From Caldilineaceae bacterium (GTDB lineage Bacteria > Chloroflexota > Anaerolineae > Caldilineales > Caldilineaceae), in the NCBI GenBank assembly GCA_041391125.1, contig JAWKON010000042.1, forward strand, positions 3,154-67,153: a stretch of 64,000 bases of DNA. The letters are read 5' to 3'. Positions within the stretch are counted from its first letter, which is position 1; the number at the start of each line of letters is the position of its first letter. Position numbers and translations under genes: made by a program. Positions 10,618 to 51,019 of this stretch are shown here, piece after piece. Below the pieces are notes generated by a model. That model saw only the letters and a list, made by a program, of their open reading frames with translations, ran no database searches and was not told the DNA's origin.

Positions 10618-11694
10618 TCACACCGCCCCGCTTACACTATCCGTGCGCACCCATTCCCCGCTTTCCACCGAGCGCGCAATGGCCGCCAGCGTGCGCATCA
10701 CGGCAATGCCCTCGTCCACGTCGGCGCCCTGCTGCGGCGCGCCGTCCAGAATGGTTTCGGCAAAGCCCTCCACTTGCCGCTTATACGAAAAACCGTCCTC
10801 GCCCAGCGGTCGGTGATATTGGCCATCTGCCGTGGAAAAGCACTCGACATCGCTGGATTTGTAAAACCAGGGCAAATAAGCGCGCCCGCGCACGCTGCCA
10901 TGTTCGCCGAAAACTTGAAAGCCCTCTTCAAAATCACCGCGGATGGGGATGATCAAATCAAGATGGCCCAGGCTGCCGTTGGCAAATGCCGCCGCCACAA
11001 ACCAGCAATACGAATCAAAGCGCTGCGCCAGCCGCGCCTGCACCGCCTCGATGTCACCGCCCAAAAAGCGGGCCAGATCGACCAGATGGCTGCCGTGGGT
11101 CAGCATGAAATAGCGCGCTTTGTCGGCTTTGGGGTTGCCCGCCGGCCGCCGCACCTGGGCGCTGGATTCCATGATCGGCTGCAAGTTGTCGGTCATGGTG
11201 TAGCGGTAGACCGAATCATAATACCACACTTTGAGCGCCTGCACCTGCCCCATCTGCTCCTGAATAAAGCGCCGGGCAAAGGCGATGCCCGGATCAAAGC
11301 GCTTGTTCTGCCCCACTTGCAGCACCAGTCCGCTCTGCTGCACCGCATCGCGCAGCGCCAGGCACTCATCCACGCCCACGCTCAGCGGCTTTTCCACCAG
11401 CACATGTTTACCGGCGGCAATGGCCTGCCGCGCCAGCGCCACGTGAAACTGATCGGCCACGCCGATAATCACCGCCTCCACGTTGGGATCATCCAGCATG
11501 GCGGCGTAATCCGTATAGGTCACCCGCGGCTGGTGGATGGCGGCGACGCGGCCCAGCAGGTCCGCCGCCACGTCGCAAATGGCGTAGAGTTCAGCATTGC
11601 GCGCCTTGCGGCAAGCCTCAAAGTGGGCCGCTTGTGCAATGGGTCCGGCGCCGAGCACGCCAATCCGCAACAGCCGATTTTCTTTTTGAATCAT
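10618..11694 (-). CDS. Gfo/Idh/MocA family oxidoreductase
   Basis: Rossmann N-terminus LRIGVLGAGPIAQ..H and the EKPL motif (HVLVEKPLS). Confidence 0.9.
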   Translation of the reverse strand: MIQKENRLLRIGVLGAGPIAQAAHFEACRKARNAELYAICDVAADLLGRVAAIHQPRVTYTDYAAMLDDPNVEAVIIGVADQFHVALARQAIAAGKHVLVEKPLSVGVDECLALRDAVQQSGLVLQVGQNKRFDPGIAFARRFIQEQMGQVQALKVWYYDSVYRYTMTDNLQPIMESSAQVRRPAGNPKADKARYFMLTHGSHLVDLARFLGGDIEAVQARLAQRFDSYCWFVAAAFANGSLGHLDLIIPIRGDFEEGFQVFGEHGSVRGRAYLPWFYKSSDVECFSTADGQYHRPLGEDGFSYKRQVEGFAETILDGAPQQGADVDEGIAVMRTLAAIARSVESGEWVRTDSVSGAV

Positions 11695-11700
11695 TGGTAT

Positions 11701-11890
11701 TGATCAACAGATTACACAGATTTGAAAGATTAAAATATCTACTCAACAGGATCTCATGTGGATGACCCGCTTTGGGTTCGATACGGCCGGAAACTGCACC
11801 GGCCTACTCAACCGCCGCTTGCCTTGTCAACCACATGAGATCCCAAAGAGCCGACAAAAAAATCTGAGAAATCTGCGTAATCTGTTGATC
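11701..11890. mobile_element. 190-bp MITE-like composite element with 22-bp terminal inverted repeats
   Basis: The TIRs gatcaacagattacacagattt (11702-11723) and aaatctgcgtaatctgttgatc (11869-11890) match 21/22. A nested perfect 13-bp IR (11749-11761 / 11831-11843) encloses a half copy of the GGTTGAGTAG...GTATCGAAACC element (11762-11824). It has no coding capacity. Confidence 0.6.
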
Positions 11891-11904
11891 CTTCCCCTCT
11901 CTGT

Positions 11905-12976
11905 TTAAAAAATGATGACATTCCGCAACGCTTTCGCGATTGACCGCCGCAATGGCCTCGTTGATCTCCGCCAGCGGATAGCGCTTTTGGTGATTAACTC
12001 GTCCAGCTTGAGCCGGCCTTCGTGGTAGAGTTCGACCAGTTTGGGGATGTCTACACTCAGGCGGGTGGAGCCCATTTTGCTGCCCAGGACACGCTGGCTG
12101 TCGTTGGCAAAGTTGGCCGCTTCCAGCTCCAGCTTGATGCCCGTGGCGGGTATGCCCACAATGACCAGCGTACCGCCGTTGCGCATGAGCGTAGCGCCCT
12201 GCTCGATAGCCCTGCTGCTGCCGGCGGTGATAAAGACAAAATCGGCGCCACACTGCCGGTCAGTGCCTGCACCCGGCTCTGCACGTCCTCGGTGCGGGGA
12301 TTGATGGTGTGGGTGGCGCCAAAATTTATGGCCGCGGCCAGCTTGCTTTCGACCAGGTCCAGCGCAATGATGGGCTGGGCGCCGGCCAGGCGCGCCCCCT
12401 GCACGCTGTTGAGCCCTGCGGCCACCGGCGCCAATCACCACTACGCTGCTGCCCGGCGGCACGTGGGCCGTGTTCACCACCGCCCCAGCCCGGTGATCAC
12501 GCCGCAGGCCAGCAGCGAGGCGCTCTCCAGCGGCATCTCTGGCGGGACGCGCACAATCTGGCGATTCATGCACCACCACAGATTCGGCAAAGGCGCCGCA
12601 GCGCATGGCCGCCAGAATGGTCCGACCGTCCTTGGTGTGCAGCCGCCCGTTGGCGTCAATGGGCATGGACGCTTCGCACAGATGGGGCTGCCCCTGCGTG
12701 CAGAAATAGCAGCGCCTGCACGAACGGATCAGCGTCACCACCACGTGGTCGCCCGGCTGCGCCAGCGTCACGCCTGTTTTCCACGTCGGTGACCACGCCG
12801 GCGGTCGTGCCCACACGGCGGGCAGCACGCCACCCCACGCGCTCTCCATGTAGTGGATGTCGCTGTGGCAAATGGCGGCGGCCAGCTTGACCATCACCAC
12901 CAGCCTGCGGCGGGTCGATCTCAATCTCTTCAATAACGAGCGGGCGCCCAAATTCGTAACAGACGGCTGCTTTCAT
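11905..12976 (-). pseudogene. zinc-dependent alcohol dehydrogenase (MDR family), several frame shifts
   Basis: The start MKAAVCYEFGRPLVIEEIEIDPP is at 12976. The metal site and the rest (CHSDIH, CRRCYFCTQGQPHLC, VVIGAGG, GTLVIVG, RYPLAEINEAI) are spread over three minus-strand frames (ORFs 12656-13129, 11905-12951, 12057-12434, 11804-12253). Confidence 0.75.
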
Positions 12977-34227: not shown

Positions 34228-34372
34228 GTTCACTGCTAACTTAACGACATTGGGTGTACACTCCATCATCTCATTTTGTCCATCCTCCCAAATCCATTAA
34301 AATGAAGCACATTGTAATGCAACCGTTTGCGTAGTTGCCATTTTCCGTTATTTTGAGAAGGAGCACTCATCC

Positions 34373-36952
34373 ATGAAATTTATTGGAAAACTTTCCGTTT
34401 TACCCAAGTTGCCGGAACCAATCCAGCGCCTGGAAGAGCTTGCGTACAATCTTTGGTGGAGCTGGGAGCCAGATGCGCAGGCGCTATACGCCCAGATCGA
34501 CCCCGCGGTATGGGAAGCTGTGAATCACAATCCGGTAAAGCTTTTGCGTCGTGTACAGCAAGGCAAACTGGACGCCGCGGCTCAAGATGCGGCTTTTTTG
34601 CAAGCGTACGAAAGCGTATTGGCGCGATTTGACGCCTATATGAACGCCGACGATGTCTGGTTTGCCGCTACCTATCCCAACAAAGGGCGCGAATTGATTG
34701 CGTACTTTAGCGCTGAATTTGGGCTGCACGAGGCGCTGCCAATTTACAGCGGCGGTTTGGGCATTTTGAGCGGCGATCACTGCAAGGCGGCCAGCGATTT
34801 GGGTCTGCCCTTTGTGGGCGTCGGTTTTCTCTATCCGCAGGGCTATTTTACGCAGCATATTGACATTGAAGGGCGGCAGCAGGCTCAATATGAAAAAGCC
34901 GACTTGAGTGAAGTTCCCGCCACCCCCACTGTCGATAAGAACGGCGCGCCCATTTTAATCCAGGTGGATATGCCCGGACGTACGGTCTATGCGAAAATCT
35001 GGCGCATTCAGGTGGGACGCATCGCGATTTTCTTGATGGATACCGATGTGGAGCGCAACGCCCCGCAGGATCGCGAGCTGAGCGCCCGGCTCTACGGCGG
35101 CGACCGCGAGCTGCGCATCAGCCAGGAGGTGGTGTTGGGCATTGGCGGCGTGCGCGCGCTGCGCGCCTTGCAGGCCGCAGGCATCATCGACAAGGCGCCC
35201 ACGGTTTGGCACATGAATGAGGGACACAGCGCCTTTTTGGGTCTGGAGCGCGTGCGCGAGCTGGTGCAGGGCAGCGGGCTCTCTTTTGACGAGGCGGTGG
35301 AGGCGGTGCGCGCCGATTCGCTCTTTACCACGCACACGCCGGTGCCGGCGGGCAACGACGCCTTTGCCTTTGAGCTGGTGGAGAAATTCTTTTGGCAATA
35401 TTGGGGCCAACTGGGCATCGACCGCGATGGGTTTATCAACTTTGCCCGCCAGGAGCTGGATTGGGGACCGCAGTACAGCATGACCGTGCTGGCCATCAGG
35501 CTGAGTGCGTATCAGAATGGCGTGAGCAAGCTGCACGGCGAAGTGAGCCGCGACATGTGGAAATTCCTGTGGCCGGATACGCCGGCCGTGCAGACGCCCA
35601 TTGGCCACATCACCAACGGCGTCCACGTCAAAACCTGGCTGGCGGCGGAGCTGCGTGAATTGTACGACCGGCATTTGGCGCCCAATTGGCTGGATGATGT
35701 GGACGATCCCAACATTTGGGCGGCGGCCCAATCGTTGCCCGACGGTGAACTATGGCTTGTGCATCAGGAGCGCAAGCAGAAGCTGGTGCAACTGGTGCGG
35801 CAGCGCGTGGCGCGCCAATTTTTGCAACACGGTGAGGGTCCACAACGCATAGACGCCGCCCAACATCTGCTCAATCCGGACGCGCTGACTATTGGTTTTG
35901 CCCGGCGCTTTGCCACCTATAAGCGCGCTACGCTGCTCTTCCGGGACGAGGAGCGGCTGCGGCGGCTGCTCAATGACCCCGAGCGTCCGGTGCAGATCAT
36001 CTTTAGCGGCAAAGCGCATCCGGCCGACGAGCCGGGCAAAGGGCTGATCCAGCACATTTATCACATGAGCCAGCGGCCCGAATTTTGGGGCAAAATTGTC
36101 TTTGTGGAAAATTACGACATGAATATCGCCCGCCACCTGATTGCGGGCGTGGACGTGTGGCTCAACAATCCGCGGCGCCCGCATGAGGCCAGCGGCACCA
36201 GCGGCCAAAAAGCCGCGCTCAGCGGCATCCCCAACTTTAGCGTACTGGACGGCTGGTGGGTCGAAGGTTATGTGGGCGACAAAGAAAACCGCAACGGCTG
36301 GTCGATTGGCGAAGAACGGGCCTACAAGGACGAAGAAACCCAGGATCAGGCGGACGTGCTGCATCTTTACGCCACGCTGGAAAATGAGATCATCCCGGCC
36401 TATTTTGAACGCAACGAAGCGAGCGTGCCGGAAAAGTGGCTCACCATCATGAAGAACTCCATCCGCACCTGCACGCCGCAGTTCAGCATGCAGCGCATGG
36501 TGAAAGAATATACCACCACCTATTATTTGTCCGCCATGCAAAGCGGCGCCCAATATCACGATGAGAGCTTCGCCACGGCGCGCACCATGTCGGCCTGGAA
36601 AAATCGCATGCGCCAAAGCTGGGGCAGCGTGCGCGTGGAATCGGTGGCGCCCCAGCTGATGCAGATTCAGACCGGCCAGGCCATTGAGCTAAGCGCGCGT
36701 GTCTGGCTCAACGGCGCCGCGCAGGACGAAGTGGCGCTGGAGATCATCGCCGGTCAGCAGAACGAACAGGGCGAGCTGACCGCGCCCACCGTGGCGCCCA
36801 TGACGGCGGTCTCGACGCAAGACGGTGCGCTGGTCTATCGCGGCCAGCTTCAGCCTACGGACAGCGGGCAGCTGGTGGTGGGCATTCGCGCCCGCCCGCA
36901 AAATGAGCACTTGATCAACCGCTACGAAACCGGCCTCAACCGCTGGGCATAA
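34373..36952 (+). CDS. glgP: alpha-glucan (glycogen/maltodextrin) phosphorylase, GT35 'alpha-glucan family' type
   Basis: 859 aa, intact. It has the N-terminal DUF3417-type segment (LPEPI.RLEELAYNLWWSW), SGGLGILSGDH and EASGTSGQKAA (PLP-Lys region). Confidence 0.9.
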   Translation: MKFIGKLSVLPKLPEPIQRLEELAYNLWWSWEPDAQALYAQIDPAVWEAVNHNPVKLLRRVQQGKLDAAAQDAAFLQAYESVLARFDAYMNADDVWFAATYPNKGRELIAYFSAEFGLHEALPIYSGGLGILSGDHCKAASDLGLPFVGVGFLYPQGYFTQHIDIEGRQQAQYEKADLSEVPATPTVDKNGAPILIQVDMPGRTVYAKIWRIQVGRIAIFLMDTDVERNAPQDRELSARLYGGDRELRISQEVVLGIGGVRALRALQAAGIIDKAPTVWHMNEGHSAFLGLERVRELVQGSGLSFDEAVEAVRADSLFTTHTPVPAGNDAFAFELVEKFFWQYWGQLGIDRDGFINFARQELDWGPQYSMTVLAIRLSAYQNGVSKLHGEVSRDMWKFLWPDTPAVQTPIGHITNGVHVKTWLAAELRELYDRHLAPNWLDDVDDPNIWAAAQSLPDGELWLVHQERKQKLVQLVRQRVARQFLQHGEGPQRIDAAQHLLNPDALTIGFARRFATYKRATLLFRDEERLRRLLNDPERPVQIIFSGKAHPADEPGKGLIQHIYHMSQRPEFWGKIVFVENYDMNIARHLIAGVDVWLNNPRRPHEASGTSGQKAALSGIPNFSVLDGWWVEGYVGDKENRNGWSIGEERAYKDEETQDQADVLHLYATLENEIIPAYFERNEASVPEKWLTIMKNSIRTCTPQFSMQRMVKEYTTTYYLSAMQSGAQYHDESFATARTMSAWKNRMRQSWGSVRVESVAPQLMQIQTGQAIELSARVWLNGAAQDEVALEIIAGQQNEQGELTAPTVAPMTAVSTQDGALVYRGQLQPTDSGQLVVGIRARPQNEHLINRYETGLNRWA

Positions 36953-37303: not shown

Positions 37304-38368
37304 ATGGCGAAAAAGCGCATTTCCATTAAGGATATTGCCGAAGTAGCCGGCGTCAGCCACCCCACCGTCAGCCGAGCGCTGCGTGGGCAGGGCCGCATGA
37401 GCGAGAGTACGCGCGAGCGTATTCTGGATGTGGCCAAGGAACTGGGCTATGCGCCGAGCCTGATGGCGCGCGGATTGGTCATGCAGCGCAGCTTTTGCGT
37501 CGGACTGATTGTGCCCACCTTTTTGGACCCATTTCACAGCGAGGTGGCCCAGGGTGTTGAAGAGTGGGCCCGGCGTCATCACTATAGCCTGTTTGTCTCT
37601 AGCACCGATCTAGATCCCAAGCGCGAAATGGAAGTGGCCCATAGTTTTTTAGGCCGCCAGGTCGATGGTATCATTGTGTCATCCAGTTGCGTGGGAGATC
37701 AATATGTGGAGATGTCACGGGAAAGTGATATTCCCATTGTGCTGATCAATCCCCAGACAGACAGTACGCAAATTCACACCGTGGCGCATGATGATTACAG
37801 TGGCGGACTTCTGCTTATGGAGCATCTCATCCAGCAGGGGCATCGCAACATTGCCCACTTGGGCGTCACGACGCAGGGCCGGGCGCACCACGAGCGCAAG
37901 CAGGCCTGGATCGACTCCATGCGCAAAGCAGATCTGTCCCCCAAACTGAGCGTCGATTGCCCCGCCGGCAGCATCAGCGGGGGGATGCGCGGCGGGGCGC
38001 AGCTGTTGCAGAAAGCGCTCGAGATCTGGCAAGCGCCGCCCGATGCCATTTTCTGTTACAACGACGCTGCGGCCATCGGCGTCATCGCCGCCCTACGCGA
38101 CGCCGGGTATGCAGTGCCGGATGCTGTAGCTATTACGGGTTTCGACGATCTGGACATTGCGGCGGCCATCGAGCCAGCGCTAACCACGATTCACCAGCCG
38201 CGGCGCGACATGGGTGTGCTGGCCATGCGCACTTTGCTTTCCTTGATCGACCAAATTCATCCCCAAAAAGACGGCGAGGTGCATAGCGTCTCGCCATCAA
38301 ATGCATCGCAGCTTGAACAGATATCGACTTTAGTCCCAGGACGTATGATAATACGCCGTTCAGCATAA
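37304..38368 (+). CDS. LacI-family transcriptional regulator (likely regulator of the inositol cluster)
   Basis: The HTH is ISIKDIAEVAGVSHPTVSRALRG, followed by a periplasmic-binding-protein-like sugar-binding core. It lies directly upstream of iolC. Confidence 0.9.
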   Translation: MAKKRISIKDIAEVAGVSHPTVSRALRGQGRMSESTRERILDVAKELGYAPSLMARGLVMQRSFCVGLIVPTFLDPFHSEVAQGVEEWARRHHYSLFVSSTDLDPKREMEVAHSFLGRQVDGIIVSSSCVGDQYVEMSRESDIPIVLINPQTDSTQIHTVAHDDYSGGLLLMEHLIQQGHRNIAHLGVTTQGRAHHERKQAWIDSMRKADLSPKLSVDCPAGSISGGMRGGAQLLQKALEIWQAPPDAIFCYNDAAAIGVIAALRDAGYAVPDAVAITGFDDLDIAAAIEPALTTIHQPRRDMGVLAMRTLLSLIDQIHPQKDGEVHSVSPSNASQLEQISTLVPGRMIIRRSA

Positions 38369-38380
38369 AGGACAAGGACT

Positions 38381-39406
38381 ATGACCAACAGAGCCACCAC
38401 TTACGATTCAGTCCATATGGGCCGTTCCTCCATCGATCTTTACAGCAATGATGTGGGCGCCCCTTTTGTCGACATTCAAAGTTTTGCCGCCTATGTGGGC
38501 GGCTCGCCGACCAACATCAGCGTGGGCGGACGGCGTTTAGGTCTCAAGACCGCGCTGATCACCGGTTTGGGTGTGGACCCGGTGGGCGATTTCATATTAA
38601 ACTTCCTCAACAAAGAAGGCGTGGAAACCCAATTCAGCCCACGCAAACCGGGCCACCGCACCAGCGCCGTGGTGCTGGGCATCGAGCCGCCCAACAAGTT
38701 CCCGCTGGTCTATTATCGCGACAACTGCGCCGACATTGAATTGACCATTGATGACGTGCTGGCCGCCCCCATTGCCGACGCCAAAGTTTTCCAATTTGCC
38801 GGCACCAATCTGTGCAAAGAGCCCAGCCGCAGCGCCACCATGTTTGGCGCCGAGCTGGCGCGCCAATCCGGCGTGGACGTGGTTTTCGATGTGGATTTTC
38901 GCCCCGACCAGTGGCACGACCCGCGGGCCTTTGGCGTAGTGGTGCGCTCGATTTTGCACACGGTGGACATTGTGATCGGTACCGAGGACGAGATCAACGC
39001 CGCCATGCTCAAAGACGCCAGCCAAATGTCGCTGACCCACTCGCAAATCTCTGATGCCAAAGTGGCGGGCGACACCCAATCGGCCATTCGCACGCTGCTC
39101 TCTCTGGGTCCCAAAGCCGTCATCGAAAAAGTGGGCGCGCTTGGCTCCCGCGTCCATCTGGCCGACCGCGCTGAACCCATCGAAGCGCCCGGTTATCCAG
39201 TGGAAGTGTACAACATCCTGGGCGCGGGCGATGCTTTTGGCGCCGGTTTTATTTACGGCTACGTCAATGGCTGGGATCTGCGCAAGGCGGCGCGGCTGGG
39301 CAATGCCTGCGGCGCCATTGTCGTGCAGGCCCACGGTTGCGCCAATTTCATGCCCACGCTGGATGAGGTGATGGCGTTTGTGGAGCCTAGGGGAGGATTG
39401 GAGTAA
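38381..39406 (+). CDS. iolC: 5-dehydro-2-deoxygluconokinase (PfkB family)
   Basis: GRSSIDLYSN..G......SF..YVGGSPTNI N-terminus and a GAGDAF.AGF C-terminal PfkB motif, with iol-cluster context. Confidence 0.8.
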   Translation: MTNRATTYDSVHMGRSSIDLYSNDVGAPFVDIQSFAAYVGGSPTNISVGGRRLGLKTALITGLGVDPVGDFILNFLNKEGVETQFSPRKPGHRTSAVVLGIEPPNKFPLVYYRDNCADIELTIDDVLAAPIADAKVFQFAGTNLCKEPSRSATMFGAELARQSGVDVVFDVDFRPDQWHDPRAFGVVVRSILHTVDIVIGTEDEINAAMLKDASQMSLTHSQISDAKVAGDTQSAIRTLLSLGPKAVIEKVGALGSRVHLADRAEPIEAPGYPVEVYNILGAGDAFGAGFIYGYVNGWDLRKAARLGNACGAIVVQAHGCANFMPTLDEVMAFVEPRGGLE

Positions 39407-40659
39407 TGAAAGCAATTTTGCGTCGATTAGAGTGTCATAATTATAAAAACATTCACCTGGAAGCTGGTCTTGAATTAGATCAGCTAAACATATTTATTGG
39501 TCCAAACGGTGCGGGAAAAAGCAATCTAATTGGGTTGCTTCAATTCTTGCAACAATGCTTGATTCATCTGAACGCTAGATAGAGGGCGGACAAGTTTTGA
39601 GGATGCTGTTTGTATGGGCTGATAAAGAATTCTCGACGGGAGAATGCAAGGTCAGCCAATGTTGAACTCAATTACACGTTTGACGACAATATACATTTTT
39701 TCCTCACTTTACTGGTGCAATCTCAGCGCCACCCAAGTAATCATTGATGATGGGCGCTAGCTCGCAATCAGAACGAATGAACCATTTTATTTTCCAAGCC
39801 CATAATCGAGGAAGTGGTCGGGGAGTTGTATCAGTTTATGATGATGCAACCCTAAAGGGGATTACTCATTATGAGAAGATTACAGATATTCCAGTTAATG
39901 ACTTGGTTCTCGCGAATATTCCAAGTTGCTTGAACGCAGTGCGTTCCCCCGAGCAAACACCCCGTATTCCGAAACTCGCAGAAAACTAATGAAACCATTC
40001 GTGGCTGGAGATTTTACAATGCCAATAACATGAATTTGGGGGATATACGAGAAGTGAACCCCAACTTGGACCCCAAGATGAGTTATTCTTCAACAGGCGA
40101 AAACCTTGCCTTGGTTTTCCATAACTTAGTGCAATCCGATTTTGAATTCGAAGAACAGATTAATCAGTTAGTTATGGATATTTTACCTGAAGCTCGTAGA
40201 TTCGAGCATATGCCTCTGGCAGGTTGAGGCTAACCGTTGAATGGTATGTGGAAGTATTACAAAGCCCGTTTTACCTAGATCAAATGTCAGATGGCACCGT
40301 TAGGATGTTATGCTGGGCAATTATACTTAACTCACCCTAAATTGCCATCCCTAATAGCGATAGATGAACCAGAATTGGGTATTCATGTATCCTGGTTATA
40401 TCGCTTGCTGCTTGGATTAAACATGCAGCAGGAAAACACAGGTGATTGTCAGCACCCTGCTTCGATCTCTTAGACCATTTTACCGATCAGCTAGATACAG
40501 ATGGCAACATACTGGTTTTGAGCTGGATAAGAGAAAATCATCAACATTTCAATGTCAACAAGTTAACCAAAGATACCGTGATCGAATGGCTAGAGGGCTG
40601 GCAGTTGGGCGACCCAGCACCGTGTAGGAGATCCATCTGTTGGAGGTTGGCCGTGGTAG
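39407..40659 (+). pseudogene. ABC-type (AAA15/AAA21-like, COG4637-like) ATPase on an AT-rich island; many frame shifts
   Basis: MKAILRRLECHNYKNI...IFIGPNGAGKSNLIGLLQFL (Walker A), WRFYNANNMNL, GENLALVFHNL, QMSDGTVRMLCWAI (signature), LIAIDEPELGIH (Walker B), QVIVST, LLDHFTD and GDPSVGGWPW* appear in order across frames. G+C is about 35-40 %. Confidence 0.7.
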
Positions 40660-41269
40660 TTTGGATCTTTTTGCAGGTGGCGGAGAGTCTGAAGTAGAAG
40701 GCTTAAAACCCTTTTTTGAAAACAACTATCCTCAGCACCAATTGAGCTGAAGTTGCCAGAGCGTCGTAAGCCTGACCCCAAACCGACTGGTCAGCCAGGC
40801 TATGGCCGCGCCCTGAATGCGCTTATCTGCGCAGATTGTTAAAAGTTGAGCATCGCTATCACGCGGTAATATATGCGATTTCATATTGGTTATTGACGAT
40901 CTCGATTGCCAAAGAGATCCATCAAAAGATCAATATTTTTACAAAAGCTGTAGACACTGTCGCTTCCGGTACCCAATCCCTCTTCATATTGGTCTGGCTT
41001 CACCAGAAATAGAAGCATGGCTAATTGCTGATTGGGACAATACTTTTGCACGACGTAGATTTTCGTCACTGCCATAGTGCAATGCGTCATTGGCTACGGA
41101 CTCAGAAGAACGTAAAATTCGATATAGAAGATTTAGCGAGTTTGACCCAGACAAAAATACATGTGTTGAAAAGTTATCTGATGCCATTATAGAATCCACT
41201 CAAAACCGATATTTCAGCAAAGCGAGAATATTCGAAAGCAATCCACACTCGACTATTGAGAAAAGCTGA
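40654..41269 (+). pseudogene. DUF4276-like small protein, partner of the ATPase; frame-shifted
   Basis: The GTG start overlaps the upstream stop (GTGGTAG). Motifs are VWIF/LDLFAGGGESEVEGLKPFFEN at the N-terminus, VIDDLDC, and ASPEIEAWLIADWD. It ends ...STIEKS* at 41267-41269 and is followed by the 9-bp hairpin gctgatagt/actatcagc. The family assignment is from memory of DUF4276 motifs. Confidence 0.45.
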
Positions 41270-41358
41270 TAGTCAAACTATCAGCCAATAAATGTCCTCT
41301 TTATCGCCAAATCCATATTAAATTATCATCTGTATAGGATGTGCTGAGAGACAACCCA

Positions 41359-42257
41359 ATGAACATCAACATCGCCACTGCCCCGGTCTCCTGGGGCGTG
41401 CTCATGAAGGACACCCCCAACGTTCCCCCCTATACCGAAGTTTTAGACGGCATCCAGGCCGCGGGCTACACCGGCACCGAGCTCGGTCCCTATGGCTATC
41501 TGCCCTTTGACATCCCCCAGATTGCGCGCCGAACTTGACTCGCGTGGGCTCCAACTCATCTCAGCCTTTACCATTTTCAACTTCGTCGAAGGCAAAAAGG
41601 ACAGAAGTAGTCTATCGCCGGTAACTAGAAACCATGCAGGTGCTCAGCGCGGGATGCGAATACATTGTGCTCTCCGATGCGCTCTTTGTCATTGAAAATC
41701 GCGCCCGCCGCGCCGGCCGCATTCGCCCGCAAGATTCGCTGAGCGGTGCGCAGTGGGATCAAGCGGCGCAGAACGTCAACGATTTCGCCAAGATTGTCCA
41801 CGAAGAGTATGGCATGCGGTGCGCCGCCCATCCTCACGTGGGCGGCTACCTGGAGACCGATTTTGAGCTGGACGCCTTTCTAGAGCGCACCAATCCCGAG
41901 CTGGTCGGCCTCTGCTTTGACATGGCGCACATTGCGTATGGCGGCGGCGATCCGGTGGCCGTGCTGGACAAATGGCGCGACCGCACCTGGTACATGCACA
42001 TCAAAGAGTGCAACAACGTGGTGCGCGACCAAGTGCTGGGCCGCGAAGGTGACTATTTTGACGGTGTGCAGGCCGGCGTCTTCCCAGAAATTGGCCAAGG
42101 CACCATCGACTGGCAGAGCATCCGCCGCATTTTAGAGGAAATGAATTATCAAGGCTGGGGTACGGTAGAGCAGGACATCCTGCCCGGCATGGGTATCGAT
42201 CCGCTGGAAAGCGCCAAGCGCAATCGCGCCTATTTGCGCCGCGAACTGGGCTGGTAA
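41359..42257 (+). pseudogene. iolE: inosose dehydratase-like sugar-phosphate isomerase/epimerase (xylose isomerase-like TIM barrel), two frame shifts
   Basis: NIATAPVSWGVLMKD....Y..VLDGIQAAGYTGTELGPYG resembles the IolE N-terminus. The rest (ORF 41634-42257) has HPHVGG, DMAHIAYGG, MHIKE and GWGTVEQD. Confidence 0.6.
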
Positions 42258-42362
42258 CCTACATAGCGCAGAGTGCGATGCACGGCGTCCAAAACTCTCG
42301 GCCTAGCCAACCGCTTATCCGCCAGTCGCAGCGGCTAGCTACGCAAACGCAATCATCAACCA

Positions 42363-44340
42363 ATGTCTACCATCAAAGAAGGCGACCTGCTCTGGCAGCC
42401 CTCGCCCGCCACAATTGAACAGGCCAACTTAACCCGCTACATGCGCTGGCTGTCCCAACATAAGGGACTGCACTTTGCTAGCTATCCCGAACTGTGGCGC
42501 TGGTCGGTGGAAAACCTTGGCCCTTTCTGGCAGACCATCTGGGACTTCTGCCAGATCAAGGCGTCGGCGCGCGGAGAAATTGCGCTGGCGGATGATGCTA
42601 TGCCGGGCGCACGCTGGTTTCCCGACGCCCGCCTCAATTATGCGGAAAATATTTTTGCGCAGGCGTCGGACACGCGTCCGGCACTGCTATACGAAAACGA
42701 GAATAGCGCACTCATCGAAATAAGCTGGCCGGAGTTGACGGCCCAAACGGCGGCCCTCCAACAGACGCTCTTAGCCGCCGGAGTACGAAAAGGGGATCGC
42801 GTCGCCGCCTATCTGCCTAATATTCCCGAAGCAATCATTGGCTGCTTGGCCACAGTGGGAGTGGGCGCGGTCTGGTCCAGCGCCTCGCCCGATTTTGGCG
42901 CCAAGGCGGTGCTGGATCGCTTTTCGCAGATCGAGCCCAAGGTACTGCTGGCGGTGGATGGCTATCGCTATGGCGGCAAAGATTTTGAACGGGTCGACAC
43001 AGTGCAACAATTGCAAGCTGGCTTGCCCACGGTGCAGCAGACAATCATCGTTCCCCTGCTCGATCTGCCGCTGGACGGGCTGCAAAACACTAGCCGCTGG
43101 GACGACGCCTTGCGTTTGCATATTGGGGCGGCAACGCCCGTTTTTGAGCAAGTTTCATTTGACCACCCGCTGTGGGTGCTCTATTCATCCGGCACCACCG
43201 GGCTGCCCAAACCCATTGTCCACGGCCACGGCGGCAACCTGTTGGAACACGCCAAATCGCTAACGCTGCACAACGACATCCGTCCCGGTGACCGCTTTTT
43301 CTGGTTCACCAGCACCGGCTGGATGATGTGGAACTATCTGCTCGGCTCCATGCTGGCGGGCAGCACCGCCATTCTGTACAACGGCAGCCCGGCCACGCCT
43401 ACGCTGGACCGCCTGTGGAGCTTGGCCGAGCGCAGCGGCATGACCTACTTTGGCCTATCGCCGGCCTATATTGCGGCGTGCATCAATGCGGGCATTCGGC
43501 CGAATCAAATCCACGATCTGAGCAAATTGCGCGCCATCGGCTCCACCGGCGCGCCGCTGCCGGTCAGCGCGTTTCAGTGGATATACGAAAATGTTCATGC
43601 CGATGTAGCGCTTGAATCGCTGAGCGGCGGCACCGATGTGTGTACGGCCTTTGTGGGCGGCGCCCGCATCCAGCCCATTTACGCCGGTGAATTGCAGGGC
43701 GCTTCATTGGGAGCTAAGGTGCAGGCATACAATGCGGTGGGTCAGCCCGTGGCGGATGAAGTGGGCGAACTGGTGATCAGCGCGCCCATGCCCTCCATGC
43801 CGGTCAGGTTTTGGAACGATCCGGACGGTGAGCGCTATCGAGCCAGCTATTTTGATGTCTACCCAGGCGTTTGGCGGCACGGCGACTGGATCAAGTTTAA
43901 CCAGCGCGGCGGCTGCGTGATCTATGGCCGCTCCGATTCGACCATCAACCGCAAGGGCGTACGCATGGGGACCAGCGAGATCTACGCCTGTGTGGAGGCC
44001 ATAGATGAGGTGATGGACAGCCTGGTGGTTGATTTGAACAAGCTGGGGCGAGATTCATTATGCGCTTTTTGTATTGCTGCGAAAATTCAAGGCTCGATGA
44101 TACACTCAGCGCGCTATCAACCAGCGGCTGCGCAATGAGCTTTCACCGCGTCACATTCCCGACGCTATTTACCAGGTGAAGGATATCCCCTACACCTTGA
44201 GCGGCAAAAAGCTGGAAATACCCGTGCGCCGCATCCTGCTCGGGGAAGATGTGGAAAAGGCTGCCAACCCGGGCGCCATGCGCAATCCGCAGGCGCTGGC
44301 CTTTTTTATCGAATTAGCCGAAAAATTAAACACCAAATAG
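42363..44340 (+). CDS. acetoacetate-CoA ligase (acetoacetyl-CoA synthetase)-like acyl-CoA synthetase; frame shift near 44060-44130
   Basis: LWQPS...I..ANLTRYMRWL, YSSGTTGLPKPIVH and GSTGAPL. The C-terminus (LSPRHIPDAIYQVKDIPYTLSGKKLEIPVRRILLG...LNTK*) lies in another frame and ends at 44340. Confidence 0.8.
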
Positions 44341-44396
44341 AAAACTGATAAAAGAGATGCTATGATGCGAATGTGAAGCGGAATAGGCATCTAAAC

Positions 44397-44512
44397 CATG
44401 ATTTTTATGATTTGCTGATGGGCTATGATTTCGGGTAGCGGATAGCGAGAAGGAAATGACAACGAACTTTTGGCGGCGGAATCATAATATTCATAAAATC
44501 ACAAAAATCATT
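44397..44512. repeat. single diverged copy of the 118-bp stem-loop element
   Basis: catgatttttatgatttgctgatgggctatgatt...gggtagcggatagcga...aaatgacaacgaac...aatcataat..ataaaatcacaaaaatcatt. Same organisation as 10317-10617. Confidence 0.8.
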
Positions 44513-44578
44513 GTACGGACAAGGTTTTTCTTTCACTTACCGCGCCACTCTGAATAGTAACAAGAAAACGAGGCCAAC

Positions 44579-45399
44579 ATGAAGCACAGAATCCAATCCG
44601 ACTATAGCCAGACCAAACGGTGGATGTGACCCGTGAATCAGCCGGGTGGGACTATCTTGACCTATTTCGCCGTGGTGCGGTTGCAGCCCGGTGAAAGATT
44701 GCGCGGAAGCGACAGGTGGCGACGAGGTGGCGCTGGTGCCGCTGCAAAGGTGCAGGCACATTAGCCGCCAGCGACCAACAATGGTCGTATCGCGCGAAAA
44801 TGTTTTCACCCAGTTGCCGCACGTTATCTACCGCCGCCGGGCCAGGAGATCAAAGTGGGCAACAGCGCACGGTGCGCTGGGCGGCGCCCCGGCCACCGGC
44901 AAATATCCGGTGCGCCTCTTTACGCCAGAGGAACAGAAAGTGGAAATCCGCGGGGGTGGACCGGCCGTGCTTGAAGTGCATCATACGCTGGCCTGGCCGC
45001 GCTGCCCGCCGAGCGGCTGATTCTCTTTGAAGTGTACGTGCCGGGCGGAACCTGTGGCCGCCCACTGTCACGACCGCGTGGGCGATTCCCCCTATTTGGA
45101 GGAGACCTACTATTACCGCATCCAGCCCGAAAACGGCCAGCCTTCCACACAACTACCGCCGCGACACCGACTTCGATGAAGTGATTCCAGCTCGCCACGG
45201 CGACTGCGTGCTGGTGACGCAGGGCTTTCACCCGGTTGCGGCCAACCCCAACTCCAAATATCTATTTTTCTCAATTACTTAGCCGGTGAGCCGCAAAACG
45301 AGGCCGTGACTATCGCCCCTTTGAAGACCCGACACCACCTGGATCAAGAAAGACAACTGGGACGCCAATCAGATGACGTTGCCGATTCAATGGAAGTGA
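44579..45399 (+). pseudogene. iolB: 5-deoxy-glucuronate isomerase, multiple frame shifts
   Basis: GWDYLD..VVRLQPGE, EVALVPL, SRENVFTQLPHVIY, KYPVRLFTPEE.KVEIRGGG, ERLILFEVYVPGG, HCHDRVGDSPYLEETYYYRIQPENG and GFHPVAANP appear in IolB order across three frames. Confidence 0.7.
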
Positions 45400-45488
45400 A
45401 GAGGACAAGGTGACAGGATGAAGAGGATGACAAGGTGATATGGTGACTTCTTGAGCTCAGTCATCTTGTCATCTTGTCATCTTGTCAA
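45400..45488. repeat. word hairpin, family GATGACAAG
   Basis: gaagaggacaaggtgacaggatgaagaggatgacaaggtga ... agtcatcttgtcatcttgtcatcttgtca, lying between iolB and iolD. Confidence 0.85.
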
Positions 45489-45506
45489 ACCACAAGGAGA
45501 AACCTA

Positions 45507-47430
45507 ATGAGTACGAACGCCACCACCCGCCTGACCATGTCGCGGGCAATCGTGCAGTTTTAAAAATCAATACAGCGAACGCGATGGGGTTGAGCACAAG
45601 TTTTTGCCGGCTGCTTTGGCATCTTTGGCCACGGCAATGTGTCCGGCATGGGGCAGGCGCTGCAGCAATATCCCGACTTTCGTTATTATCAGGCGCGTAA
45701 TGAACAGGCTATGGTGCATACTGCGGCCGCCTGTCTGAAACATGCCAACCGGCTGCGCACCCTTGCCTGCACCACCTCCATTGGCCCCGGCGCCACCAAC
45801 ATGGTGACCGGCGCCGCCACCGCCACGGTCAACCGGCTGCCGGTGCTGCTGCTGCCCGGCGACATTTTTGCCCGCCGCAATGTGGCCCCTGTCCTCCGCT
45901 TGGGAATCGAATGGGAGCACAGCCAGGACATCTCGGCCAACGACTGCTTCAAACCGGTCAGCCGCTACTGGGACCGCATCAACCGGCCCGACCAGCGCTG
46001 GTTACGTCGCTCATCAGGGCCATGCGCGTGCTCACCAGCCCGGCCGATACCGGCGCCGTCACCGTGGCCATCCCGCAGGACGTGCCAGACCGAAGCATGG
46101 GATTACCCCAGCGAACTCTTTGCGAAGCGTCTGGCGCATTCCGCCGCAACCGGCCCGATGCTGATGCGATCAAACGGGCGGCGCAAAGATACATCCGCAA
46201 CGCCCAGAAGCCCATGATCATCGCCGGCGGCGGCGTGGCTCTATAGCGAAGCCACGGCCACGCTGGCCAACTTTGTGGAGCGCACGGGCATCCCCGTGGG
46301 CGAGACGATGGCGGGCAAAGTATGCGCTACGACAACCCACTCTGCCTGGGCGCCGTAGGCACCGCTGATACTTCTGCCGCCAACATTGTAGCCAAAGAGG
46401 CCGACCTGATCATCGGTATCGGCACCCGCTACAGCGACTTTACCACGGCCAGCAAAACCCAGTTCCGCAACGCCGACGTGCATTTTGTCAATATCAACGT
46501 AGCCGAGTTCGATTCCGCCAAACATAGCGCCATCCCCTCACCGGCGATGCCAAAGTTACATTGGAAGAGCTGCTCGGCCTTTTGGATGGCTACATCTTGA
46601 AGCCAATCAATCTCAAGCGCGCAAGCTACACGATGCGTGGGAAGCCGAAGTGGATCGCCTCTACGCCATCCAGACCGCCGACAGCGGCTTGCCCTGGCAG
46701 GCGCGCTTATCGGCGCCGTCAACGACCACGGCGACCCCAATGCCGTCATGGTGGGCGCGGCGGGCAGCCTGCCCGGCGACATGCACAAGCTGTGGCGGGC
46801 GCGCCATCCCAAGCAATATCACCTGGAGTATGGCTACTCATGCATGGGCTACGAGATTGCCGGCGGGCTGGGCCTCAAATGGCCGACCCGGACCGCGAGG
46901 TCTATGTCATGGTGGGCGACGGCTCCTATTTGATGATGAACACCGACCTGATCACCTCGGTGCAGGAAGGGTATAAGCTGACCGTGGTGCTCATGGACAA
47001 CAGCGGCTTCCGCTCCATTGGCTCGCTGAGCCGCAGCCTGGGTCAAGGTGGCTTTGGCACCCGCTACGTCTTCCCCGAAAATGGCGGGCTGCCCACCGAT
47101 GCCAAGGGCTATGAGGTGGATACGCTGCCGGTGGACCTGGCCATGAACGCCCTGGCCTGGGCCGCCACGTCATCGAATGCAGCAGCGTGGATGATGTGAT
47201 TCAGGCGCTGCAGGACGCCGAGCATTGACCGCACCACCGTCATCCACGTGCGCAACGACCGCTACCTGGGCGTCCCCGGCTACGAAAGCTGGTGGGACGT
47301 ACCCGTGGCCGAAGTCAGCGAGCTGGATTCGGTCAACGCCGCCCGCGAAGAGTGGGCGGAGAATCAGGTGATGGAGCGCGCTATTTTTGGAGAGCCTGTG
47401 AGGATGAGGGATGACAAGATGACCGGGTGA
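45507..47430 (+). pseudogene. iolD: 3D-(3,5/4)-trihydroxycyclohexane-1,2-dione acylhydrolase (ThDP enzyme), many frame shifts
   Basis: AAGGAG RBS, then MSTNATTRLTMSRAIVQFLKNQYSERDG...FGHGNVSGMGQAL...ARNEQAMVH...SIGPGATNMVTGAA...GDGSYLMMN (ThDP motif)...VVLMDN...WWDVPVAEVS, spread over all + frames. Confidence 0.8.
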
Positions 47431-47573
47431 CAAGGTGAATCCTGTTCTGGCCAACTGATTTCGTCGGCGCGTTGGGGCATGATTGGCGGCGGGAAAGCGC
47501 GGCGACAGCAGATTGGATTTGTTCGCCGCCTATCGTGCCCCGCCGGCCAACATTTAGTTGAGCCAATATCATA

Positions 47574-48256
47574 ATGAACGAAACAGAATTGACCTTGGCC
47601 CATTTAAAACAGGCTATCAGCTCAAATGGAGCCCCACCATCGCCGCGAAAAGAAAAAGCCATTTATGGCTAACGCGGCTACACCTTCTCGAACTACTTTC
47701 GGCTCAACAATTCAGCGGTCGAAATTGCGGCGCTGCTCGGCTACACGTATGAGCACGCATATCTCAATCTGCCGTACAGAAAGATGCGCTGCCAAACTGG
47801 AATTACGCTGCAACACAGGCTAAACAGATCTGGTACATATTGCATGACCAGCAAAATGGCGCGGCGAATTTTTGATTGCGCCGATTCTGGCTAACTGCTC
47901 GACTATGTGGATGCCCGCCTGAGCGTTGGTACCACCATCAGCGTCAACAACATTTTGCGAGGCGCGCTTGACTACTACTTGGAGGCCAGCGCCTGCTGCG
48001 TGGTGATTGAGGCCAGAATGCTGATTTACAGGCTGCCCGGCTTTCATCAGCTCATGGCGGAAATGGCCGCGCTGGATCAACATCCCGGACATACCGGCCT
48101 GCTCTACGGCATCACCGTGGGGGACGTGTGGCAATTTGGACGGCTGCACCGCCCCACCAAAGCGATCTATCAGACCTTGCGCTCTACACGATTCCCGCCC
48201 AGGTGGAATCGCTACTGCGCACTTTGATTGCAATACTCACAAAGGAATACCTATGA
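47574..48256 (+). pseudogene. HsdR_N-like (type I restriction enzyme R N-terminal domain / PD-(D/E)XK-like) protein embedded in the iol cluster, frame-shifted
   Basis: MNETELTLAHLKQAI..., then LLDYVDARLSVGTTISVNNILRGALDYYLE, VVIEA, HQLMAEMAAL, LLYGITVGDVWQFGRL and ..[17 protein letters not shown] whose TGA overlaps the mmsA ATG (ATGA at 48253-48256). Local G+C looks lower than the flanks by eye. The family call is from memory of the cyanobacterial/Chloroflexi family. Confidence 0.4.
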
Positions 48257-49730
48257 CCACAAACGGACAGCTACTCAACTACGTCAACGGCCAGTGGGCG
48301 CGCTCCGCGCCGCTGACTATCTGGACGTGATGAATCCGGCCACGGCGCAGGCCATCACGACCGTACCCATGTCGCCGGGCGGTGAGGTGGACAATGCGGT
48401 GCAAAAGGCGCAGGCAGCCTACGTTGGCTGGCGCCACACGCCGGTGGGCGACCGCATCCAGCCGCTCTTTAAGCTCAAGCAGCTCTTGGAAGACAATCTG
48501 GACGCATTTGGGCGCATTATTACCGACGAGTGCGGCAAGACCTATGCCGAAAGCGTGGCCGAAATGCGCCGCGGCATCGAAAATGTGGAGGTGGCGTGCG
48601 GCGCGCCGGTTCTCATGCAGGGCTACAACAACGAAGACATTGCCCGCGGCATCGATGAGCACATGTTCCGCCAGCCGTTGGGCGTGGTGGCGGCCATCAC
48701 CCCCTTCAACTTCCCCGGCATGATCCCGCTCTGGTTTCTGCCCTATGCGGTGGCCACGGGCAACTGCTTTATCCTCAAGCCCAGCGAAAAGGTGCCCATG
48801 AGCAGCCAAAAGCTCTTTGAGCTGATCGACCAGGCGGGCTTCCCGGCGGGCGTGCTGCAATTGGTCAACGGCGGCAAAGAGACGGTGGACGCGCTGCTGG
48901 ATCACCCCGGCGTCCGCGCCATCAGCTTTGTGGGCTCGACGCCGGTGGCCAGATATGTGTACAGCCGGGCCACGGCCAACGGCAAGCGCGCCCAATGTCA
49001 GGGCGGCGCCAAGAATCCGGTGGTGATCATGCCCGACGCCGATTTGGAATCGGCCACGCGCATTGTGGCAGACTCGGCCTGGGGCTGCGCCGGTCAGCGC
49101 TGTCTGGCGCTCTCGGTGGCCGTGACCGTGGGCGAGGCCAAGAACACTTTTACCGAAATGCTGGCCGATGCCGCTGCCAGCCGCAAGGTGGGCTATGGGC
49201 TGGGCGAAGGCATCGAAATGGGTCCCGTCATCACGGGCGAGAGCAAAACGCGCATTGAGAGCATTATTGGCAAAGCGGGTCAAGAAGGCGCCAATGTGCT
49301 GGTGGATGGACGAGACAAAAAGGTGGGCGGTTACGAAGATGGCTACTTTGTCTTCCCCACCATTTTGGACAACGTGAACCCCAACGGCGAAATCGCTAAG
49401 ACCGAAATCTTTGGCCCGGTGCTGAGCATGATGCACGCCAATACGGTCGAAGACGCGCTGGAGATCGTCAACAACAGCGCCTATGGCAACATGGCCTGCA
49501 TCTTCACCAGCGACGGCAACACGGCCCGCCAGTTCCGCTACGGCGCCGACGCCGGCAATGTGGGCATCAACATTGGCGTAGCTGCTCCGATGGCCTATTT
49601 CCCCTTTAGCGGCTGGAACGAAAGCTTTTTCGGCGACCTGCACGCCCAAAGCCACCACGGCGTCGAGTTCTACACGCAGACCAAGGTGGTGGTGGAACGG
49701 TGGCCGCGGGAGTGGAGTCGGAAGTTTTAG
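48253..49730 (+). CDS. mmsA: CoA-acylating methylmalonate/malonate-semialdehyde dehydrogenase; one frame shift at about codon 17-22
   Basis: [18 protein letters not shown] (ORF 48136-48330), then [12 protein letters not shown]...ITPFNFP...[10 protein letters not shown]...VGST.VA...G.RCLA (ORF 48228-49730). Typical MmsA/IolA. Confidence 0.85.
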
Positions 49731-49830: not shown

Positions 49831-49849
49831 AACCCAAAGGAACACCACA

Positions 49850-51019
49850 TTGCAAACACACACACTCGGCATCGGCGTAATCGGCATGGGCTGGATGGGG
49901 CAGGCGCATAGCCGGGCGTATCGGAATATTGCGGACCGCTTTTATGATAGCGGCATTCGTCCCCAACTGGTGATTTGCGGCGATGAGGCGCCGGCGCGGG
50001 CGCAGCAGGCGCAAGAGGCGCTGGGCTTCGCGCAATCGACCACCGATTGGCATGAGGTGATTGAACATCCCAACGTGCAGGTGGTCAACGTGGCTTCGCC
50101 CAACTATCTGCATTTGGAGATGGTGCGGGCGGCCACGGCGGCGGGCAAGCACGTCTTTTGCGAAAAACCGGTGGGTCGCTCGCCCGCCGAAACGGCGGAG
50201 ATTGAGCGGTTGGCGCGTGAGGCGGGCGTGATGAGCTTTGTGGGATTCAACTATCGCTGGGCGCCCATGGTGCAATATGCCAAACAGCTCATTGACGAGG
50301 GCCGGCTAGGCCAAATCACGCATTACCGCGGCCGCTTTTTCGCCATGTATGGCTCTAACCCGCTGGGGCATCTCACCTGGCGCTTTAAGCAAGAGTATGC
50401 CGGTTCGGGCGTGCTGGGCGACATTATGTCCCACGCCGTGGATATGGCGCACATGTTGATTGGCGACATTGACCGCGTGGTCAGCAGCCGCCACACCTTC
50501 ATCACCGAACGCCCCCTTCCCAGCGGCCAAGGCACGCACTTCGGCCTGGGTCAACCGGGTGACCCCACTGGGCCGGTCGAGAATGAAGATTACGTGGGCG
50601 CGCTGGTCCAATTTGCCAACGGCGCCCAAGGCTCGTTTGAAACCTGCCGCGCCATCTTTGGTCCCAAATGTGAAATGTCGTTTGAGGTCAATGGGACCAA
50701 AGGCGCGCTCAAATGGAACTTTGAACGACTTAATGAGCTGGAACTTTATCTTCCTACCGAGGATGCCGCCTCCGATGGCTACACGAATCTACTGGGTGGA
50801 CCGCGCTTTCCGTTCCACGGCCGCTTTAATCCGGGCGACGGCATTGGCGTGGGCTACGAGGATCTCAAATGCATTGAGGCGTTCCACTTTCTCCGCTCTA
50901 TTGCAGACGGCCAGCAGATCGAGCCCAGTTTTGCCTCGGCGCTTAAACTGGCCAATGTACAGACGGCCATGATGAAGTCGTGGGAGAGTGGAGGGTGGGA
51001 GGCAGTATCGAGTGTTTAG
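49850..51019 (+). CDS. Gfo/Idh/MocA family oxidoreductase, probable inositol dehydrogenase
   Basis: [16 protein letters not shown] Rossmann motif and FCEKPV. TTG start with an AAAGGA RBS. The functional guess comes only from the iol-cluster context. Confidence 0.75.

Follow-up and report, generated by a model that had tools for sequence, protein, structure and literature searches.

A putative HEC-01-type gene pair at a polymorphic iolC-iolE junction of Caldilineaceae, with frameshifts that are probably consensus errors

Pairs of an ABC ATPase (HEC-01A) and a TOPRIM-like partner (HEC-01B) are catalogued in PADLOC as the candidate system HEC-01 (Hma-embedded candidate 01), and the family has been tried twice in Escherichia coli with mixed outcome. 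No protection was seen in strain MG1655 (10.1101/2024.01.29.577857), while a second study reported that E. coli was protected by a cold-seep representative from at least one of the phages T4, T5, and T7 (PMC12881386); in both cases the member tested belongs to another branch of the family from the one described here. Homologues of DUF4276, the family to which the partner belongs, are also components of MADS (as Mad4) and of Menshen (PMC12065111), and of the comparable PARIS system it is known that it senses Ocr and cuts tRNA (PMC11464382). We have examined a gene pair of this kind in a 64,000-nt stretch of DNA (the window) from a Caldilineaceae bacterium, which is part of contig JAWKON010000042.1, a 75,730-nt contig of a metagenome-assembled genome (MAG) in NCBI. 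The pair forms a cassette between the inositol catabolism genes iolC and iolE, and our overall reading, to which we give a probability of roughly 0.65, is that it is a HEC-01-type cassette at an old polymorphic iolC-iolE locus, and that the frameshifts in the window copy are most likely consensus errors. A first-pass annotation, made from the sequence alone, had assigned the pair to the class of conflict systems in which an ATPase is joined by a small nuclease-like partner, and the PADLOC comparisons given below agree, with HEC-01A and HEC-01B as the respective families. It had also taken the pairing with DUF4276 to be uncharacterised, which the two HEC-01 assays and the MADS and Menshen homologues contradict.

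The cassette (39407-41337) has a G+C content of 0.422, compared with 0.588 and 0.582 in the 5 kb upstream and downstream respectively, and it is the G+C minimum among all 1931-nt stretches of the window (mean 0.582, standard deviation 0.031), the runner-up elsewhere being 0.533. The drop reported at 39407 in the first-pass annotation is real, but its figure of 35-40% is slightly too low, as 300-nt windows across the cassette lie between 0.39 and 0.45. The borders that it gave, at the iolC stop codon and just before iolE, are right: the iolC TAA (39404-39406) and the ATPase ATG (39406-39408) overlap as TAATG, and the stop codon of the DUF4276 gene (41335-41337) is followed 21 nt further on by the iolE ATG (41359). 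The two genes also overlap one another by 7 nt, in a GTGGTAG (40653-40659) that had been recognised from the start and that contains both the ATPase stop and the GTG start of the DUF4276 gene. The low-G+C island is exactly these two genes with no additional DNA, and composition and borders together support the description of a compositionally foreign segment splitting iolC from iolE. On the left flank, iolC is 96% identical at the amino acid level to iolC of MAG HK-STAS-CHLO-11 (L001) and has no indels relative to that of the closest relative of the window (L087), which carries a Pfam PfkB match.

At the cassette borders we found no terminal direct or inverted repeat and no target-site duplication, only short repeats at chance level; an AATGAA common to both ends is start-codon context. 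There is no integrase within the cassette, a tRNA scan identified no tRNA gene in the window, and no Rfam family was found in the 37-49 kb region, and we note that nothing expected of an integrative mobile island accompanies the cassette, be it a transposase or integrase, an att or tRNA target, or direct repeats on either side. A scan for promoters and terminators between 38.3 and 42.3 kb gave counts matching the shuffled expectation. Because the ATPase start overlaps the iolC stop, the ATPase gene would presumably be transcribed together with the iol operon, and coupled to it in translation, in the window lineage.

No long open reading frame is left in the cassette as given, and the coding motifs are spread over three reading frames, although three-frame translation recovers every one of those quoted in the first-pass annotation. 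In the ATPase gene these are Walker A, GPNGAGKSN (39499-39525); WRFYNANNMNL (40006-40038); the ABC signature QMSDGTVRMLCWAI (40281-40322), which includes MSDGT; Walker B, LIAIDEPELGIH (40351-40386), which includes IDEPE; QVIVST (40439-40456); and a C-terminal GDPSVGGWPW (40627-40656). In the DUF4276 gene they are FAGGGESEVEGLKPFFEN (40670-40723), containing GGGESE, and ASPEIEAWLIADWD (40997-41038), containing SPEIEAW; an IDDLD lies within 40886-40909. The codon for the H-loop histidine (QVIVSTH in the orthologue) coincides with a 2-nt deletion in the window copy. A database search yielded an intact 423-aa homologue of the ATPase (P0001) in a Caldilineaceae MAG, on contig L081, and this contig, together with the Logan contig L082 and the MAG contig L083, carries an intact 423-aa ATPase gene and an overlapping 231-aa DUF4276 gene, the three copies being 99.9% identical to one another. 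L082 extends from the 3′ end of iolC to the 5′ end of iolE, with the same TAATG and the same 21 nt before iolE. The earlier length estimates of about 417 and 200 aa are therefore replaced by 423 and 231 aa. When the window copy is mapped codon-wise onto L082, 344 of the 423 ATPase residues are identical, with 31 broken codons, as are 190 of the 231 DUF4276 residues.

After frame correction the window ATPase matches Pfam AAA_21 well above the cut-off of 27 bits (80.8-84 bits; E-values of 2.4e-22 to 2.7e-23). For AAA_15 the E-values range from 1e-7 to 1e-9, with 38.6 bits in a hand-stitched translation (1.3e-9) and 32.0 bits in the codon-mapped one, against a cut-off of 32.1; the hand-stitched version also matches SMC_N, and the intact orthologue scores 112 bits with AAA_21 and 64 bits with AAA_15. 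The description of the first gene as an ABC-type, AAA15-like ATPase is thereby upheld. Its best PADLOC family is HEC-01A (9.1e-41, and 8.8e-53 for the orthologue), followed by AriA, PDC-M07A, AbiLi, mad3, and NsnB, and among solved structures the nearest in sequence are GajA, AriA, and PtuA, all of them weak matches. From these comparisons the protein is predicted to be an ATPase of the AAA_15/AAA_21 class, related to AriA of PARIS, GajA of Gabija, and PtuA of Septu. We note also that the first 200 nt or so of the gene (39406-39600) are 69-78% identical to L082 whereas the remaining cassette is about 90% identical, and that the N-terminal peptide is closer to the allele of another relative, L055, than to that of L082, which suggests that the 5′ end of the window ATPase gene may be mosaic.

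The frame-corrected DUF4276 protein of the window, with X at broken codons, scores 28.9 bits with Pfam DUF4276 (PF14103), just under the cut-off of 30.2. Its intact orthologue (P0121, on L081), which is 82% identical overall and 87% identical over unbroken codons, passes with 32.8 bits, and the majority of the listed homologues carry a precomputed PF14103 match, so that the family named in the first-pass annotation holds for the orthologue while the window copy falls marginally short of it. HEC-01B models are matched by 30 of 32 homologues, with a best E-value of 1.4e-8, and the sole PADLOC match of the family outside HEC-01B is to PtuA, in one member (E = 0.0079). When the partner is modelled with AlphaFold2 (pLDDT 88.9), its core shows the order b-a-b-a-b-a-b, with strands at residues 2-7, 29-32, 77-83, and 111-116 and helices between them, and a helical domain comes after this core. 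Across the 32 homologues a glutamate (E13) is near-invariant after strand 1, in GGGESE, three aspartates (D82, D83, and D85, in DDLD) are invariant after strand 3, and PExE..W is invariant after strand 4. Such an arrangement is the signature of TOPRIM. The window copy keeps both motifs, the Glu after strand 1 and the DxD after strand 3, and two papers place HEC-01B/DUF4276 in TOPRIM (10.1101/2024.01.29.577857; PMC12065111).

Several results weigh against the reading of the partner as a TOPRIM-type HEC-01B protein. The HEC-01B match is weak, with E-values of 5.1e-4 for the orthologue and 0.036 for a crude translation of the window copy. Compared with the PDB by Foldseek, the model had glycosyltransferases as its best matches (lowest E-value 3.7e-3, TM-scores of about 0.3), and the top 50 contained no TOPRIM protein; a search against BFVD gave no match below 1e-3; and a DUF4276 profile matched no PDB sequence at E ≤ 10. 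The Foldseek matches are to generic three-layer alpha/beta folds, none of them significant. Since neither the Foldseek nor the PDB-profile searches gave anything significant, the assignment to the TOPRIM fold draws its support solely from the motifs and the literature.

To compare the junction among relatives we used the 80 best species-level loci retrieved with iolC, all from Caldilineaceae or Anaerolineae MAGs, 43 of which have iolE directly downstream. A full ATPase and DUF4276 cassette, with a gap of about 2.1 kb between iolC and iolE, is present in 16 of these 43 genomes; the remainder comprise one 635-bp gap (L055), one 205-bp gap (L047), an unrelated 2.65-kb insert (L006), and spacers of 3-265 nt. 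Cassette-free junctions, for which a search had been proposed as a check, do occur: iolC abuts iolE with 3-6 nt between them in L002, L005, and L061, and the spacers of L087 and L001 are 92-113 nt long. Presence is patchy even among sisters in a tree built from the flanking genes. L087, which is 87% identical to the window in nucleotide sequence, has no cassette and has all of its iol genes intact, and the flanks of the cassette-free L001 are 93-96% identical to those of the cassette-bearing L081/L083 population. In every occupied genome the cassette is 8-12 points lower in G+C than its flanks, and in the window and L082 it is 16 points lower. An ancestral pair, present in all relatives with host-like composition, had been named as the finding that would overturn a foreign origin; what we see is occupancy in about 40% of relatives, always at low G+C.

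The 92-nt spacer of L087 is shared with L001 and includes a 13-bp perfect hairpin (ACACGGTGAC...GTCACCGTGT) between iolC and iolE (11028-11124 in L001 and 11027-11118 in L087). It is an alternative 'allele' at the iolC-iolE site, and may be a terminator-like or REP-like element. What is left in the 205-bp gap of L047 (11017-11222) is the 5′ spacer, 12 nt from the start of the ATPase gene, and about 75 nt from the end of the DUF4276 gene, and because this remnant is 93% identical to the sister L029 we interpret it as a deletion scar. L055 (11053-11645) is likewise a deletion derivative, with a 146-aa ATPase remnant in which the N- and C-terminal parts are fused in frame, and with a stub of DUF4276. 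The 'empty' spacers of about 188 nt in the sponge-associated clade were also considered as cassette scars, but only L047 and L055 qualify, and the others are unrelated to the cassette. The insert in L006 (4031-6680) encodes a TauD-family dioxygenase and an AAA_35/AAA-ATPase_like protein of 518 aa that has a PDDEXK_3 nuclease domain at its C terminus, and as the insert is unrelated to the cassette the junction can evidently take other cargo.

The first-pass annotation envisaged a horizontal insertion at this site, and in its strictest form, a recent arrival from a low-G+C donor that is private to the window genome, it has some appeal, given the 16-point G+C difference, the cassette-free state of both L087 and L001, and third-position divergence from L082 that is lower in the cassette (0.23 in the ATPase gene and 0.15 in the DUF4276 gene) than in the adjacent iolE (0.34). 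This last comparison does argue that the cassette moved between the window and L082 lineages after their split, presumably by recombination through the conserved flanks. However, the junction is occupied in the 16 genomes noted above, which span deep Caldilineaceae branches, and in the L081-L083 population besides; two relatives carry deletion scars; alleles have been exchanged; the nearest cassette homologues are all in Caldilineaceae; and neither an integrase nor a tRNA gene nor a repeat at the flanks is present. It follows that any transfer was an exchange of alleles at a pre-existing locus by flanking homology, and we regard a private insertion as very unlikely. The cassette is instead one allele of an old polymorphism, both allelic and of presence and absence, at the Caldilineaceae iolC-iolE junction.

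Allelic exchange is most apparent in the sponge-associated clade, where ATPases share only 59-64% amino acid identity while the same genomes are 99% identical in iolC, 92-95% in DUF4276, and 97-98% in iolE; the breakpoints are the stop codon of iolC and the overlap of the two cassette genes. Three ATPase allele classes can be distinguished in L046, L041, L027, L036, and L049 (at about 11100-12400 in locus coordinates), in which iolC is 99% and DUF4276 and iolE are 92-98% identical. These sequence comparisons show that the cassette can be deleted, leaving scars, that its low G+C is maintained, and that the ATPase gene can be replaced wholesale between near-identical genomes. By analogy with PARIS, OLD/Gabija, and HEC-01 as described, the ABC ATPase would act as a sensor and scaffold that holds or activates a nuclease on a phage cue, and the DUF4276 protein, a candidate TOPRIM-like metal-dependent nuclease, would be released or activated upon infection and cut nucleic acid, such that the infection is aborted or blocked. 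Swapped ATPase alleles beside a conserved nuclease fit a role for the ATPase as the specificity-determining sensor. Taken together, the features of the locus are those of an autonomous module under conflict-type evolution at a fixed junction, and not of a one-off insertion.

A role other than anti-phage defence, either as a selfish addiction or toxin-antitoxin-like module or as an accessory function linked to iol, could be argued from the Pfam label of AAA_21, which refers to an AbiEii-type toxin, from the absence of defence in one HEC-01 test (10.1101/2024.01.29.577857), and from the fixed position within the iol genes, where the TAATG coupling could suggest a functional link. The same pair is found, however, in unrelated neighbourhoods: it follows fabF in Microcoleus, adjoins hsdR in Desulfonema magnum, and in a further Caldilineaceae genome is next to a D12 methyltransferase and a HepT/MNT pair, two of these neighbourhoods being rich in restriction and toxin-antitoxin genes. 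It is also patchy among sister genomes that all keep their iol genes, its ATPase allele turnover beside a conserved partner is what an arms race would be expected to produce, and a HEC-01 representative did protect E. coli against at least one phage (PMC12881386). We therefore give a non-defence role very little credence, and a metabolic one in the iol pathway, considered separately, is unlikely for a pair that is found in settings with no relation to iol and that sister genomes can do without.

The remaining component of our reading, that the frameshifts in the window cassette are most likely consensus errors, derives from the distribution of indels and from the accompanying substitutions. 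Host-gene indels were counted from an alignment to L087 and cassette indels from an alignment to L082 (Table 1). Relative to L082 the cassette has 18 insertions and 32 deletions, 43 of which break the frame (32 in the ATPase gene and 11 in the DUF4276 gene), and there are further frame-breaking indels in iolE (6, where tblastn with the L001 iolE reveals a switch from frame 1 to frame 3), acs (4), iolB (16), and iolD (15). The indels are concentrated in two blocks, with borders located within iolE, acs, and the aldehyde dehydrogenase gene, and the Poisson probability of the clean 2.4-kb block between them, at the indel-rich rate, is 4e-18. The second block breaks the 3′ end of acs, iolB (KduI), iolD (a TPP enzyme), a gene for a 237-aa hypothetical protein, and about the first 60 nt of the aldehyde dehydrogenase gene. 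Its substitutions are typical of purifying selection, and its indels probably reflect the same assembly-quality problem as those in the cassette.

Table 1. Features of the iolC-iolE region and distribution of indels in the window
Feature	Position	Strand	Remarks
Region compared	34353..36952		0 indels, 0.0 per kb
Region compared	37400..39405		3 indels, 1.5 per kb
iolC	38381..39406	+	5-dehydro-2-deoxygluconokinase, PfkB family; 341 aa, intact; left flank; from list of open reading frames
ABC-type ATPase gene, AAA_21/AAA_15, HEC-01A-like	39406..40659	+	orthologue 423 aa; ~32 frame-disrupting indels
Indel-rich block 1	39406..41660		55 indels, 24 per kb; first base of cassette to ~290 nt into iolE
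DUF4276 gene, TOPRIM-like, HEC-01B-like	40653..41337	+	orthologue 231 aa; ~11 frame-disrupting indels
iolE	41359..42257	+	AP_endonuc_2 / inosose dehydratase family; right flank; six indels at 41514-41648 break the frame
Region compared	41661..44050		1 indel, 0.4 per kb
Indel-rich block 2	44051..48310		78 indels, 18 per kb; acs 3′ end to aldehyde dehydrogenase 5′ end
Region compared	48311..49728		0 indels, 0.0 per kb
Region compared	49835..50631		1 indel, 1.3 per kb

A natural pseudogene with so many indels is expected, at the usual bacterial indel-to-substitution ratios, to show several-fold more neutral substitutions. In iolD the substitution rates at codon positions 1, 2, and 3 are 0.039, 0.024, and 0.181, with no nonsense change; neither iolB nor iolD has an excess of first- or second-position substitutions, and among about 2,300 host codons, for all the dozens of indels, not one has become a stop by substitution. 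The corresponding rates in the cassette are 0.079, 0.061, and 0.23 for the ATPase gene and 0.073, 0.064, and 0.146 for the DUF4276 gene, and the ratio of positions 1 and 2 to position 3 is 0.30 and 0.47 respectively, compared with 0.18-0.5 in pairs of intact cassettes.

Were the frameshifts real, the cassette and the downstream iolE, acs 3′ end, iolB, and iolD would all be pseudogenes, in a lineage losing both inositol catabolism and the cassette. The indels enumerated above are, after all, present in the sequence as given, deletions exceed insertions (57 versus 35) in the manner of natural pseudogenes, and the cassette does get lost in relatives, as in L047 and L055; two in-frame nonsense substitutions in the codon mapping of the cassette (39428 and 40814), both in poorly aligned stretches, also speak for decay. 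Against this, the indel blocks ignore gene borders and enclose the clean stretch, first- and second-position substitutions are not in excess and the host codons are free of nonsense changes, the substitution pattern of the cassette is indistinguishable from that of intact cassettes, and the source is a MAG contig. The first-pass annotation, having seen correctly that many frame corrections were needed, left the choice between decay and mis-assembly undecided; the block pattern and the purifying-type substitutions favour mis-assembly, and we consider real decay improbable, both for the cassette on its own and for the lineage-wide loss. We are fairly confident that the cassette frameshifts are consensus errors, belonging to two stretches of uncorrected error-prone MAG sequence, and the organism itself probably has both genes intact. 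The error blocks could have arisen at places where the short-read assembly graph was broken because strains differ in having or lacking the cassette.

Two other approaches to the frameshifts were set aside. A GC3 frame plot was tried as a reference-free frameshift finder, but the codon-position G+C bias is too weak, and a search for frameshifts shared with the iolE of L081, as proof of real mutations, was uninformative because the positions differ. Independent copies of the window allele were also sought; looking up the exact proteins gave no record for either the first fragment (58 aa) or iolC, and protein-pattern and DNA-pattern scans of JGI metagenome contigs found none. In L081 itself (2008-2936) iolE is split among frames 1, 2, and 3 by tblastn and acs is called in two pieces, while iolE is intact in L083, from the same population; MAG assembly quality around the iol locus is uneven in more than one dataset.

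Elsewhere in the window, an open reading frame for a luciferase-like monooxygenase (1324-2043, 240 aa) covers only residues 2-229 of a 328-aa solved homologue (8k74_A) and is truncated or frameshifted near 2040; an overlapping reading frame at 1853-2329 has no match. Syntenic anchor genes that enclose about 33 kb in the window (1187-34340) enclose 2.6 kb in L001 (3330-5988), which indicates that a large stretch ahead of the iol locus is variable, and L087 has other genes again in that region, including a phage-type integrase.

The pair itself adds little, since HEC-01 already covers combinations of an ABC ATPase with a DUF4276/TOPRIM protein, which are met again in MADS and Menshen; the one aspect that may interest a specialist is a fixed site within an operon that displays trans-species polymorphism. 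The fixed site, patchiness, scars, low G+C, and ATPase replacement together amount to population-genetic support for the poorly validated HEC-01 as a conflict system, and the comparative pattern points to the ATPase as the part that determines specificity. One could go further and propose that the iolC-iolE junction is a long-lived trans-species immune locus with balanced presence and absence of a candidate defence pair, in which whole-gene alleles of the sensor ATPase are swapped beside a conserved DUF4276 nuclease, and that expression is slaved to the inositol operon, through the TAATG coupling to iolC in the window lineage, such that defence is nutrient-gated; this is a speculative extension that we think doubtful. 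A more practical point is that what looks like pseudogenisation, in the cassette and in 4 kb of iol genes near it, is probably an artefact of assembly, and it is unsafe to call these genes decayed, or the organism inositol-negative, from the window contig.

Among described systems the closest is HEC-01, which likewise consists of two genes on the same strand; HEC-01A is the best match of the cassette ATPase, and HEC-01B is matched by the partner family. The partner match is weak, however, and the cassette sits inside a catabolic operon and is not Hma-embedded. In PARIS, too, an ABC ATPase of the AAA_15/21 kind precedes a small partner of TOPRIM type, and the cassette ATPase matches PADLOC AriA models (2e-22 to 8e-32) and the AriA structure 8ux9 (E = 6e-6), but less well than HEC-01A, and AriB is a DUF4435 protein whereas the cassette partner belongs to DUF4276; no AriB model is among the PADLOC matches of the partner, whose single Pfam match is DUF4276. 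In MADS an AAA-type ATPase (Mad3) stands beside a DUF4276-family protein (Mad4) (PMC12065111), and PADLOC mad3 models match the ATPase at 5e-11 to 8e-20. The NCBIfam MAD3 score of the ATPase is nevertheless 78.9 bits against a cut-off of 420, no PADLOC mad4 model matched the partner, and the neighbours of the window cassette are iolC and iolE only, with no methyltransferase or other mad gene. The OLD and Gabija GajA proteins combine an ABC ATPase with TOPRIM chemistry, and GajA is the best PDB sequence match (E = 1.6e-6, over the Walker A region only), but there the two activities are fused, where the cassette has two genes, and Gabija adds a UvrD-like helicase for which the cassette has no counterpart. 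The junction as a whole resembles defence hotspots in being a fixed site of low G+C, with presence and absence varying among close relatives and divergent alleles exchanged via flanking homology. It differs from them in lying within an operon, between cistrons that otherwise abut or overlap, and in holding nearly always the same two-gene family, L006 being the single exception seen. Judged by sequence, with a strong match for the ATPase and a weak but specific one for its partner, the pair belongs with HEC-01, and not with PARIS, MADS, or the OLD/Gabija fusion.

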